From Eledone cirrhosa (lineage: Eukaryota): a stretch of 64,000 nucleotides of DNA. The notes below the pieces were generated by a model. The model had not been told where the DNA came from, searched no databases, and was given only the letters and a program-made list of their open reading frames with translations. Location of the stretch: the NCBI GenBank assembly GCA_964016885.1, contig OZ024742.1, positions 250,728,001-250,792,000 on the forward strand. Reading direction: 5' to 3'. A program made the translations under genes and the position numbers. Positions 20,291 through 60,845 of this stretch are shown here, in pieces (within the stretch, counting starts at the first letter, position 1; the number at the start of each line of letters is the position of its first letter).

Positions 20291-20662
20291 ATAGTGTCGG
20301 AGTTATAGAAGGGGTTACAAGATGTTAATTTGAAGGAAACATCCACTATAGTATATGTGTTGTTCCTGGGAGGGCTGTATTTTGAAATTCCTTTTGAGTG
20401 ATGTTTCCTGGAACTTCCTTGGTGAATTTTTCCTGTCTCCTTTGTCCTCTGATCACAACTGGTATGGTTGGAGAGTTCATGTCCCATTTTCTGGAGATCT
20501 TAGTCACAAGGTCTTTATATTTAGACAGTTTTTCCATGAACTTAACTGAGGTGTTGTAATCAATCAGCATACAGGTTTTATCTTTAGGGTTTGAAATTAT
20601 GATGTCTGGCATATTTGCTTTGATTTCTCTATCTGTCTGCATTGGTATGTCCCATAGGATGG
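20291..20662 (-). mobile_element. 5'-truncated, degraded R4/Dong-like non-LTR retrotransposon (restriction-like endonuclease C-terminus)
   Basis: Translation QTDREIKANMPDIII..KDKTCMLID...EKLSKYKDL..ISRKW...IPVVI has the REL PD..D motif; both ends lie in (TAA)n-like tracts. Confidence 0.7.
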
Positions 20663-20760
20663 TATTATCATTATTAGTAGTAGTATTATTATAAAATGCG
20701 GTGGAGGGGCCAGAGAGAAACCATTATCTGAGGCTTGAAAAGAGGAGGAAATGTTATTCC

Positions 20761-20852
20761 AGCTTACCATTGTCTTCATTTCTCTGAGATAACAAAACAT
20801 GTTAAACACTTACCTAGAAAAGAGAGAGAGAAAAAGAAAATAGAAAATTAGT
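20761..20852 (-). promoter_or_regulatory. Candidate recursive splice site (branch point, polypyrimidine tract, AG|GTAAGT) with a 46-nt cryptic exon at 20813-20768
   Basis: Minus strand reads CACTAAT TTTCTATTTTCTTTTTCTCTCTCTCTTTTCTAG|GTAAGT...ACAATG|GTAAGC. Confidence 0.55.
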
Positions 20853-33418: not shown

Positions 33419-34490
33419 CCAGACTACACCACAGCAATATAGCCACATGTAACCCAGACTAGACAACAACAATATAGCCACATGTAACCCAGACTACACC
33501 ACAGCAATATAGCCACATGTAACCCAGACTAGACAACAACAATATAGCCACATGTAACCCAGACTACACCACAGCAATATAGCCACATGTAACCCAGACT
33601 ACACCACAACAATATAGCCACATGTAACCCAGACTAGACAACAACAATATAGCCACATGTAACCCAGACTACACCACAATATAGCCACATGTAACCCAGA
33701 CTACACCACAACAATATAGCCACATGTAACCCAGACTAGACAACAACAATATAGCCACATGTAACCCAGACTACACCACAACAATATAGCCACATGTAAC
33801 CCAGACTACACCACAACAATATAGCCACATGTAACCCAGACTAGACAACAACAATGTACCCACATGTAACCCAGACTACACCACAGCAATATAGCCACAT
33901 GTAACCCAGACTACACCACAACAATATAGCCACATGTAACCCAGACTAGACAACAATGTACCCACATGTAATCCAGACTACACCACAATAATATGGCCAC
34001 ATGTAACCCAGACTAGACCACAACAATATAGCAACATGTAACCCAGACTAGACAACAACAATGTACCCACATGTAACCCAGACTAGACAACAACAATATA
34101 CCCACATGTAACACAAACTAGACCACAGCAATGTACCCACATGTAACCCAGGCTAAACCACAGCAATATATCCACATGTAGCCCTGACTAGACCACAACA
34201 ATGTGCCTACATGTAACCCAAACTAGACCACAACAATGTGCCTACATGTAACCCTGACTAAAGGACAGCAATACACACACATGTAACCCAGACTAGACCA
34301 CAACAATGTACCTACATGTAACCCCGACTAGGTCAGCAATATACCCACATGGAAATCAGACAAGACTACAGCAATGTTCCTACATAGTAACCTACCACAG
34401 CTAACAGCAATGTACCCACATCTACCCTACCACAGCCAACAGCAATGTACCCATATCTATCTTGCCACAGCTAACCACAATCTACCCATC
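33419..34490. repeat. 35-bp minisatellite, about 30 copies, with two interspersed variants
   Basis: CCAGACTACACCACA(G/A)CAATATAGCCACATGTAAC and CCAGACTAGACAACAACAATATAGCCACATGTAAC; degenerates rightwards. Confidence 0.95.
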
Positions 34491-40200: not shown

Positions 40201-42259
40201 ATATATATATATATACATACATATATATACACATACATATATATATATACATATATATACATACATATATATACATATACATATATATATATATATACAT
40301 ACATATATATACATATATATATATACATACATACATATATATACATATACATATATATACACATACATATATATACACATATATATAAATATAGATACAC
40401 ACACATATATATACACACACATATATATACACATACATATATATATATATATACACATAAACACATACATATATATACATATACATATATATATACACAT
40501 ATACACATACATGTATATATATATACATACATATATACACATATACACATACATATATATACACATACATGTATATATATATATACATACATATATATAC
40601 ACATATACATACATATATATATACACATATACATACATATATACACATATACACACATATATATATACACATATACACATACATGTATATATATATATAC
40701 ATACATATATATACACATATACACACATATATATATACACATATACACACATATATATATACACATATACACATACATGTATATATATATATACATACAT
40801 ATATATACACATATACACATACATGTATATATATATATACATACATATATATACACATATACACATACATGTATATATATATATACATACATATATATAC
40901 ACATATACACATACATGTATATATATATATACATACATACATATATATACACATATACACATACATGTATATATATATATATATACATACATATATATAT
41001 ACATATATATATATACACATATACACATACATGTATATATATATACATACACATATATACACATATACACATACATGTATATATATATACATACACATAT
41101 ATACATACATGTATATATATATATACATACACATATACATATATACATACAAATACATACACATATACATGTATATACATACATACACATATACACATAC
41201 ATGTATATATATATACATACACATATACACATACATGTATATATATATACATACACATATACACATACATGTATATATATATATACATACACATATACAC
41301 ATATATGTATATATATATACATACACAAATATACATACATATATATATATATACATACACATATATACATACATATATATATATATACATACACATATAT
41401 ACATACATATATATATATATACATACACATATATACATACATATATATATACATACACATATATACATACATATATATATATATACATACACATATATAC
41501 ATACACATATATACATACATATATATATATATATACATACACATATATACATATATATATATATATACATACACATATATACATAGATATATACATATAT
41601 ATATATACATACATATATATATATACATACATATATATATACATACATATATACACATACATATATACATACATATATATATAAATACACATACATACAT
41701 ACATATATATATATATACATATATACATACATATATATATACATACACATATATACATACATACATATATATTATATACATACATCTATATATACATACA
41801 CATATATACATATATACATACATATATATATATACATATATACATATATATATATACATATATACATACATATATATATACATATATATATATACATACA
41901 TATATACATACATATATATATACATATATATATACATACATATATATATATACATATATACATACATATATACATACATACATATATATATATACATATA
42001 TACATACATACATATATATATACATATATATATACATACATATACATATATATATACATACATATATATATATACATATATACATACATATATATATACA
42101 TACATATATATATATACATATATACATACATATATACATACATATATATATATACATATATACATACATATATACATACATATATACATACATATATATA
42201 TACATACATATATATATACATACTCATATATACATACATATATATATACATACTCATAT

Positions 42260-42314
<55 letters not shown>

Positions 42315-42325
42315 CATACTCATAT

Positions 42326-42366
<41 letters not shown>

Positions 42367-42522
42367 TACTCATATATACATACATATATATATATATATA
42401 TATACATATATACACACATATATATATACATATATATATATATACATACATACATATATATATACATACATATATTATATATATATATATACATATATAT
42501 ACATACATTTATATATACATGC

Positions 42523-42571
<49 letters not shown>

Positions 42572-42729
42572 CATGTACATATATATATATACATACACAT
42601 CTATATATACATATATATATATATACATACATATATATATATACATACATATATACATGTACATATATATATATACATACACATCTATATATACATACAT
42701 ATATACATATATAAACATACATATATATA
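40201..42729. repeat. 2.5-kb compound (TA)/(CA)/(TACA) microsatellite
   Basis: Almost exclusively alternating purine-pyrimidine; source of the long YI/HT pseudo-ORFs. Confidence 0.98.
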
Positions 42730-43271
42730 TGGTAGCTGCCAACTCGTTTTCGAGGACGGCCACTACTTTATATCCATGTAGGAGAACCCCCACCGATGCG
42801 CTGAACGAGTGCGACTTCTTAGTCCAGCCAGCAACTTGAAAACTCTGGTACAAACACTACACTTGTGACAATTATTGACACATAGTGCTGAGCCCATGGT
42901 ACCATGTGATGACAAGTGCAGAGAGATCTCCAGATATAAACCAATGCCTGTGCCATGAAGCTTTTATAGTGAGCAAAGGCACTGCACAAAGCCAGTCCCA
43001 CTCTCTTAACCAAGATGATATTTACCAAAAAGAAGAACAAGTCAACATCATTGGATACCATCAGAGTTGCAGGTGTTATATCAGAGTTTTCCTTCTCCTA
43101 AAATTCTGCCTTGACAAAGGCTAAGGGATCATCTCTCCCGGTGATTTTGGATGGCCATTGACTCTTAAGAGCTCCTTTGCCCTTTGACAGGTTTTGTTTT
43201 TATTCCTGCAGAATGTCCAAAGTCACCCTCCTCACCAAGAAACCTTGGTGGGGTTGCCAGTTTAGTCACCA
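42730..43271 (-). mobile_element. Second near-identical copy of the ~550-bp RTE 5'-UTR-like unit
   Basis: Direct repeat of 39648-40200 with the same left boundary. Confidence 0.7.
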
Positions 43272-57218: not shown

Positions 57219-60200
57219 GAGACTGCGGAATCCTGGAGAGTGGAGGTGAGAGAGAGAAAAATCTGGACGCTCAGCGACAATGCCAAAGATAAAGACAAAT
57301 TCACCTCTTGGACGAGAATGCGAGCACTCCTCATTGTTTCGACCGCGGACGGCTAACATAACCCCATCGCCCCCCGCCCCTCACCGCCCCCAACCCCCAA
57401 ACGCAATCCAAAACTTCAGAGTTGGTACCATAAATGTAGGCACCCTAAAGGGTCGCGCTAACGAGGTTGTAGAAATGCTTGAACGTAAGGAGGGCGATGT
57501 TTGTTGTATTCAAGAGACCAGGTGGAGGGGTGGGTCTGCTAGGTTCATTGAGGGTAAAAAACGATGTTATAAGCTTTTCTGGGTGGGAAACGACGATGGG
57601 CTGGGTGGAGTAGGAATCATGGTAGCAGAAAAGTGGGCAGATAAGATAATAGACGTAAATAGAGTGAACGACAGAATAATTAAAATACGACTTGTCCTCA
57701 ATAGAACTACGGTGACAGTAATATCTGCGTACGCACCCCAATCGGGACTGCCCGGCACTATAAAAGACAGATTCTATGAGACACTGATGCTAACTACCTC
57801 CCAAATATCCGACAGTGACTATATAATTATCGCAGGCGACCTAAATGGTCACGTTGGACAACATTGTGACGGCTACGACGAAATCCATGGAGGCTATGGG
57901 TTTGGTACTAGAAATGAGGAAGGCTCCAGAATCCTGGAATTCTGTGATGCAAATAACCTAACTATCTGCAACACTAACTTCAAAAAACGTGACAATCACC
58001 TGATCACCTATAGATCCGGGGAACACACAAGCCAGGTAGATTATATCCTTACCAGAAGACGTGACAGAGTGTCTGTTGTAAACACTAAATCCCTCCCCCA
58101 TGAAGAATGCACCTCCCAACATAGACTGATAATTAGCGACCTCATAGTCAGGACGAGACGTACTCGACAACAGAAGAGGACTATCCTCAGGAGGAAAATA
58201 TGGAAGCTAAAGGACCCCACAGCCAGGAATAAATTTCAAAGCATATTACTTGATGCTTTCGACAGTAAGGAAGAACATTTAGAGTCGGACATTATAGAGG
58301 GAGAGTGGGAATTTCTGAAAGCAAACCTGCTGTTGGCGACAGACGAAGTCTGTGGCTGGAGCAGGCCTGTAGGCAGGAGGAGAGTAACATGGTGGTGGAA
58401 CAGTAAGGTGGAGGGGTCAATTAAGGCCAAAAAGCAGGCTTGGAAAGTATGGCGGGATGGGGGAAGTAGAGAGGACTATCAAGTGGCCAGGAGGGAAGCT
58501 AGGAGACAAGTGTACTTAGCAAGAAGGGAAGCTGAGGAAAGAAAGTTCAAGCATGTTCTACAACGCGATGACCAAAAACGTGAGGTGTTCAGGATTGCTA
58601 GGCAATGCGTCAAGGAAAACCGTGATATTGTCGGGGAGAAGTGTGTACTAAACGACGATGGCACACTTGCCATCACCGACGCTGATAAGAAGGTAGCTTG
58701 GAAGTGTCACTATGAAAGGCTACTAAATGAGGAGAATAATTGGGAGAAAGGCAGTCTCCCCCATATCGACCCAATAGAGGGACCAGCAGTGTTAGTCGAG
58801 GGGAGTATAATAAGTAAGGCAATCAAGGATATGAAGACGGGTAAAGCGGCTGGGCCTTCGGAAATAGTTGCTGAGATGCTGAAGGCATCTGGCACGGTGG
58901 GACACACCATGGTCACCCGCATAGTTAACCAAGTCGTACAGAATGGGGTTGTTCCGAAGGACTGGCATAGCAGCATCATCGTTAACTGTTATAAGGGTAA
59001 AGGAGACGCCCTAGATAGGAGTAACTATAGAGGCATTAAATTAATCAACCAGGTCATGAAGGTCACGGAAAAAGTAATAGCGCAACTAATCAGAGAGAGA
59101 ATTGACCTAGATGAAATGCAGTTCGGGTTTGTGTCAGGCAAAAGTACCACAGATGCTCTTTTCATAGTACGACAACTACAGGAGAAGTACCTAGCTAAAG
59201 GTAAACCCCTCTACTTAGCTTTTGTCGACTTGGAGAAAGCCTTCGACAGAGTCCCCCGCTCCATTATCTGGTGGGCTCTTAGAAAACTAGGCGTTGACGA
59301 ATGGCTTGTGAGGGCTATACAAGCCATGTATAAAGAAACAGTCAGCAAGGTTAGAATTAACAACGAATATAGTGAAGAGTTTAGCGTAAAAGTTGGCGTC
59401 CATCAGGGCTCTGTTCTCAGCCCACTACTATTTATTATTGCCCTTCAGGCTATAACAGAGGAGTTCAAGACAGGCTGCCCATGGGAACTCCTATACGCAG
59501 ACGACCTGACACTCATAGCGGAATCAATGGCCGAGCTAGAGAAGAAATTCCAAACATGGAAGCACGGCCTAGAGTCAAAAGGACTTAAAATTAACCTGGC
59601 TAAGACCAAAGTACTAGTTTGTAGGAAAGAAAACAAGGCGGCGGTCCCTTCTGGGAAATGGTCGTGCTCGGTGTGTAGGAAAGGCGTAGGTAGAAACTCC
59701 ATTTTATGTCCTAAATGCAAAGTATGGGTGCATAAAAGATGTAGTGGGATCACAGGTAAGCTAACTAAGAACATAGATTTTACATGTGGCCGGTGCTCTG
59801 GTGCAATAAGTAGCAGCAAGTGCCCACAAAATACTAGCTCTTTCAATTGCGCAGAGGGTTCTATAGAAATAGTGGACAGCTTCCGTTACCTGGGCGATAA
59901 AATCAGCAGTGGGGGAGGGTGCTCTGAAAGTACTGTAGCTAGAGTCAGAACTGGTTGGAAAAAGTTCAGAGAGCTTATACCACTATTAGCTGCTAAAGGG
60001 TTCTCACTAAAAATGAAAGGCAGGTTGTACGATGCCTGCATACGAACAGCAATGCTGCATGGCAGCGAGACCTGGGCATTGTGTGCAGAGGATATACGCA
60101 GACTAGAGAGGAACGAAGCTTGCATGCTCCGCTGGATGTGTAACAGTAATATACGTGAACGGCAAAGCATAAACGAACTAAGGAAAAAATTAGAGATAAG

Positions 60201-60845
60201 AGGGATCAGATGTTGTTTACTCGAGAGAAGGCTACGTTGGTATGGACACGTGATGCGCATGAAAGTCGATAGCTGTATAACAAAGTGCAGGGCAATAAAG
60301 ATAGACGGTAGTCATGGAATAGGCAGACCTAGAAAAACCTGGGACGAGCTGATAAACTCCGACATCACACACTTACACCTCTCCAAGACAATGTCACTGG
60401 ACCGAGACCTTTGGCGGTACTCAGTAACAGAGAAGACCCGCCTTACCTAAATATATAGTAAAACCTACTCCAGCCAGTAGGCATCTCTAACAAAATACAC
60501 CCCGTCCCACCACCACCACCCGATCCACACCACCCCGTTCTATGTAAAGTTATGTTGGTGCCGCGCCATCGAGGCCGAAACAAATGAGATCGTGTAGGTG
60601 TCACGACAAAAAAACACACAGTCCACGCTGTAATGTGGCCGTGTAGGCAACACGGTAAAAACCTCCCAGACCCACACTGTAAATGTGGTTGGTGTTAGGA
60701 AGGGCATCCAACTGTAGAAAACCTGCCAGACAGTCCTATGCGAGCAAGACAATCACTCTTGCCTCAAGTGGGACTACCCCCGTCCAAACCCATGCAAGCG
60801 TGGAACACGGACGTTAAACGTTGATGATGATGATGATGATGATGA

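Follow-up and report, generated by a model that had tools for sequence, protein, structure and literature searches.

Recursive splicing elsewhere and the layout of the octopod site

That introns are spliced recursively in both flies and vertebrates is established; the vertebrate sites, in long brain genes, were reportedly described by Sibley in 2015. A literature search, with thin coverage of subscription journals, gave no description of recursive splicing in molluscs, in agreement with the initial annotation, which was aware of none. An octopod class of sites with fly-like fine features would add a third large bilaterian branch, and would bear on whether recursive splicing is ancestral or has re-evolved with giant introns.

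The Drosophila ratchet points with cryptic RS-exons (Ubx, kuz, Bx, luna; PMC8605326, 10.1101/006163) offer the first comparison; here and below, statements from cited papers refer to the portions of those papers that were available. In flies, most branch points of ratchet sites fall between -36 and -21, and TT at -6/-5 is present at 99.5 % of the ratchet points, compared to 43.8 % of introns (10.1101/006163). The site described here resembles these in its adjoining acceptor and donor within a long intron, its strong pyrimidine tract and TT at -6/-5, its cryptic out-of-frame exon, about 50 nt long and followed by a weaker donor, and its exon-to-site junction; several same-strand sites per intron, as in flies, were found in the same genome on contig C21. 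Unlike in flies, where segments span 2.6-63.6 kb (mean 18 kb), the segment here is 118 kb (41-68 kb on C21), and the branch-point consensus is inconsistently enriched in the octopod class. Of eight features defining fly ratchets, five were found here and none failed: an AG|GT with strong acceptor and U1-type donor, a junction with an upstream exon, a very long intron, an RS-exon and the TT.

With the vertebrate recursive sites in long brain genes the locus shares AGGTAAGT, an intron longer than 50 kb, a place in an early intron and an RS-exon (PMC8797253). The numbers differ: about 20 sites in mouse (PMC8797253) compared to at least 77 strict-pattern candidates here, which is nearer the fly count. 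SFPQ-repressed cryptic last exons are similar in having an acceptor deep in a long intron, an early stop and a possible truncation (PMC7997972), whereas the indications of cleavage here are candidate hexamers only. The available portion of that paper sets cryptic last exons apart from recursive sites, gives typical RS-exons as lacking cleavage signals, and describes the pairing of a ratchet with a terminal exon as atypical (PMC7997972).

The window, i.e. the whole 64,000-nt stretch analysed (G000:C3:250728001-250792000), carries the site on its minus strand (Table 1). Re-reading of the sequence located every feature of the initial annotation in its place, including the stops in all three frames of the 46-nt piece, a short ORF and an inner 16-nt piece. 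The frame of the upstream exon runs through 12 residues of the 46-nt piece and then meets TGA at 20778-20776. The description of the surroundings as non-repeat DNA applies to an island of about 200 bp that is single-copy in the genome, but not to its flanks, a locally repeated element above 20900 and an old repeat (about 20680-20320) that matches the genome at 43 other places (68-97 % identity). Within the old repeat, and inside the joined contig described below, lies a 125-aa open frame (20346-20723, minus strand) with a weak, below cut-off Pfam match to L_protein_N; we presume that it resembles a retrotransposon endonuclease. Elsewhere in the window, an intact retrotransposon ORF of 1066 aa (57250-60450, plus strand) encodes an endonuclease and a reverse transcriptase, and a PHD finger sits within the RT region as an insertion. 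There are also a block of AT/ACAT microsatellite spanning 2.5 kb (40201-42730) and a minisatellite whose 35-bp unit is present about 28 times (33419-34375).

Table 1 Features of the site, in positions of the window
Feature	Position	Strand	Basis
Branch-point match CTAAT	20851-20847	-	Sequence; branch A predicted at 20848, 35 nt 5' of junction
Polypyrimidine tract, 30 nt, single A, TT at -6/-5	20846-20817	-	Sequence
Acceptor TAG	20816-20814	-	Sequence and usage in run X4
Putative ratchet donor GTAAGT, re-formed on joining of upstream exon; would be re-used	20813-20808	-	Sequence, matrix score
Cryptic RS-exon, 46 nt, frame-shifting	20813-20768	-	Sequence
Second (RS-exon) donor GTAAGC	20767-20762	-	Sequence; 8.2 bits; read through in X4
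Coverage by joined X4 contig, extending into old repeat	20813-20240	-	Contig alignment
AATAAA, three, candidate cleavage signals	from 19947, 19822, 19455	-	Hexamer matches
A9 runs, two, candidate internal priming sites	20044, 19959	-	Sequence
Window share of the 118,153-nt intron segment	20814..64000	-	Joined X4 product; segment start outside window

The weight matrices behind the bit scores are rough ones based on general knowledge. Among 8,954 AG|GT occurrences in 1.464 Mb, both strands counted, the site (22.3 bits) was the sole one to reach 20 bits or more, the next scoring 19.0. After joining, the ratchet donor scores 9.4 bits, compared to 6.2 bits for the upstream exon's own donor, and by this rough matrix the RS-exon donor is the weaker of the two at the site. 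The inner acceptor scored 7.3 against 12.7 for the main acceptor, and its use would leave an intron of 30 nt. No second strong ratchet site was seen in this AG|GT scan of the host locus; a weaker one (GTAAAT, 18.0 bits), without a second donor, lies 58.7 kb downstream. An apparently strong local strand bias of the AG|GT scores lessened when every base was counted once.

Use of the acceptor and the likely host gene

Four sequencing runs of one study cover the stretch, X1-X3 from one sample, which may be the source of this DNA, and X4 from a second. The X1-X3 contigs match the genome straight across the site, unjoined. The single X4 contig at the site matches the genome from 20814 down to 20240 and carries 29 non-matching upstream letters. 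In the 3.0 Gb these letters have a single match, on the same strand, where a 133-nt exon ends and GT follows. The joined product thus lacks 118,153 nt between this exon and the acceptor at 20814. We infer that X4, a run of unrecorded type, is an RNA run, since the join has GT and AG ends. The junction is that of one contig from one sample with 30 upstream letters, the bridge threshold being 31. The possibility that the 29 letters were pyrimidine tract skipped as a repeat was ruled out.

The junction from an upstream exon into 20813 that had been predicted was thus seen, and of the proposed giant minus-strand intron the used acceptor and the 118-kb segment were borne out, its stepwise removal being a prediction for this gene. 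Joined to an upstream coding exon, the site does not behave as an alternative start exon. Beyond the junction the X4 contig continues for 574 nt, passing both donors and the inner acceptor with no further join; it crosses 20783 and 20768 unjoined, against the suggested 16-nt microexon and the optional inclusion of 46 nt as a cassette. No junction leaving 20768 was present in this sole X4 contig, and contigs drop rare variants. Further X4 pieces cover 20166-19781 and 19621-19396; the mean depths going downstream are 16.6, 9.0 and 2.8, and no X4 contig covers 20815-20828, although neither contig depth nor holes can rank the parts.

Exactly 30 letters of the upstream exon precede the junction in the contig. 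In a 31-mer graph, a contig start at this point suggests a sister product whose next base would not be G; for the unspliced path the branch would come two bases further on. The next residue of the homologue after this exon is V, consistent with T as the next base. The start of the contig is an indirect hint that the exon may have a second splice partner, one not beginning with G.

The upstream coding exon (133 nt, G000:C3:250866967-250867099, minus strand, phase 0 to 1, then GTCAGT) is by HMMER 67 % identical to residues 54-92 of Octopus sinensis Elf-2 (P0029), and a second exon, 3.3 kb further upstream, matches residues 32-53. The host gene is, judged by this similarity, likely an Elf/E74-type ETS transcription factor. 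The two N-terminal exons agree with the ELF1/2/4-E74 subfamily in matching consecutive parts of Elf-2, but their identity is just 59-67 % and the ETS exons were not located in the genome searches. Word-based homologue searches, Pfam and the atlas gave no match for the 133-nt exon, HMMER alone finding one. The third HMMER hit (P0030), a tape-measure-like protein, was taken as chance. An unnamed 65-aa protein (P0028) reads the homologous exon into its intron, with a similar start, which suggests that the donor position of the exon is kept in a relative. The fly gene FBgn0000567 is presumably Eip74EF. For FBgn0000567 the available portion of supplement 5 of PMC6110457 has two recursive-site rows, neither of high confidence.

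The gene should continue 3' of the site, because the homologue extends for about another 250 residues, with the ETS domain at residues 249-328. Residues 93-343 were not found in 1.464 Mb around the locus, and scans of about 1.02 Mb lying 3' of the site revealed no downstream exon, their yield being transposon ORFs and unconvincing short candidates. Among the 17 and 16 genome-search matches there was no Elf-type ETS exon; the ETS matches were 35-58 % identical, and the 12 that were aligned resemble other subfamilies. The sequence has a gap of 200 N at 133 kb downstream of the site, next to a large low-complexity block, and the 3' (ETS) exons are therefore probably missing from the assembly. Possibly the host gene is truncated or has really lost its Elf/E74-type ETS exon. 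The limits of the transcription unit could not be drawn from base skew or repeat orientation.

The upstream neighbour of the host gene is a TRPM2-like channel gene (G000:C3 about 251,135,700-251,191,400) with compact introns and a NUDT9-H-type end, mostly 80-100 % identical to TRPM2 of O. bimaculoides; an exon of 99 % identity marks the genome as that of an octopod. The channel gene was ruled out as the host, since its end, at about G000:C3:251,135,700, corresponds to that of the O. bimaculoides homologue.

A genome-wide class of similar sites

When a strict pattern of 15 pyrimidines and NYAG|GTAAGT was searched in 3.0 Gb, it occurred 77 times, compared to 12 times read backwards. Hexamers of the same composition in the place of GTAAGT occurred 15 (GAATGT), 5 (GTAGAT) and 8 times (GTGAAT, counted within 37 rows), so that about 80-90 % of the strict-pattern sites exceed the shuffled controls (77 vs 5-15). 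The variant GTGAGT was found 21 times vs 8 backwards. The pattern without AG gave no excess (49 vs 56, many of them repeat copies).

Forty-seven of the 77 sites were examined, namely the first 30 listed minus two copies and the site itself (27) and then the next 20; the controls were 20 of 28, i.e. all 13 starting with GT and the first seven GAATGT. A second donor of at least 6 bits within +12 to +112 was present at 31/47 class sites vs 5/20 controls (p=0.002); it was found at 16/27 sites of the first set (shuffle 5.5), and this was replicated in the fresh set with 15/20 (shuffle 3.4). The distances were mostly 30-80 nt and spread over all three phases. TT at -6/-5, which the site itself has, was seen in 42/47, compared to 7/20 controls and 8/18 ordinary TRPM2 acceptors. 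Enrichment of a CTAAY branch point in the first set (9/27 vs 2.8) was not replicated in the second (1/20 vs 0.95).

Class neighbours within 1 Mb were on the same strand in all nine pairs (one a duplicate), compared to 34/57 pairs at any distance. One such pair on C21 is 210 kb apart, and a scan of 200 kb of that interval revealed three added same-strand sites. They score 22-24 bits, compared to 18.1 for the next best, and all three have TT as well as a donor at +43 to +49. The result is five same-strand AG|GTAAGT sites 41-68 kb apart (G000:C21:21750091-21960730), with no convincing coding exon in the 200 kb scanned. As read from the DNA, this arrangement is what a ratchet ladder would look like. 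Existing total-RNA data from cephalopods could directly test this ladder and the 77 strict-pattern sites. On C4, four minus-strand strict-pattern sites lie within 1.2 Mb (G000:C4:227982510-229161979), each with a second donor, and probably mark another giant gene.

Probable recursive splicing and competing explanations

The site is a used acceptor, at which a 118-kb intron segment of the likely Elf/E74-type gene ends, and it is probably a ratchet point of the fly type, its cryptic exon measuring 46 nt. The joining of the upstream coding exon to the AG at 20814 was seen in one contig. After the fly model (PMC8605326), the cryptic exon and its own donor would then help to define the acceptor, and the re-formed GTAAGT would prevail over the donor at 20767 and be spliced to downstream exons. 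The 46 nt, with their frame shift and stop, would be kept out of the mRNA because the re-formed donor beats that of the RS-exon. Such onward splicing would leave the mRNA without a trace, and the read-through contig would be an intermediate. The fly-type layout, the contig start, the length of the homologue and membership of a genome-wide class, the kind of site that had been proposed, together make recursive splicing the explanation that we regard as likely. Against it count the mouse AGGT junction candidates, 19/84 of which were recursive and 46/84 unannotated exons in the available portion of the study (PMC8797253).

This base rate speaks for the acceptor opening a terminal exon, alternative or sole, from which a short, ETS-less product would be made and the GTAAGT not re-used; a poly(A) signal lying about 0.9-1.4 kb beyond the acceptor is then predicted to end the transcripts. 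The unspliced X4 contig and the pieces following it, the stop 12 codons after the junction, the three AATAAA and the lack of either a downstream exon or a ladder in the searches of the host locus all agree with such an exon. However, an intermediate would also show read-through, AATAAA is frequent in DNA of about 63 % A+T, and a terminal exon leaves the perfect donor, the second donor at +46 and the TT unexplained, all of which are typical of a class that is largely in excess of its shuffled controls. We therefore consider a terminal exon alone unlikely. The two fates are not mutually exclusive, and it is conceivable, if rather doubtful, that the site is a switch, at which re-splicing would give the full ETS factor and cleavage and polyadenylation about 1 kb downstream a stable mRNA that encodes a short product lacking the DNA-binding domain. 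If so, fly-type ratchets would be widespread in octopod giant introns, some of them doubling as terminal exons.

Main inclusion of the 46-nt piece as a poison cassette exon leading to nonsense-mediated decay would fit its frame-shifting length, its stop in the host frame and the good acceptor and donor on either side of it. The ratchet donor nevertheless outscores the exon donor by the rough matrix, and X4 lacks a joint at 20768, which is weak evidence because such mRNAs would be degraded; on balance we consider this explanation very improbable. Less credible still is a chance cryptic acceptor at a TC-rich tract (splicing noise), an alternative start or the 16-nt microexon. The controls do predict 5-15 chance sites per hexamer genome-wide, but the inner acceptor of the microexon is the weaker one, with its very short intron and the contig crossing it unjoined, and the main site is the best in 1.46 Mb, has its junction as a full contig and carries every hallmark of the class.
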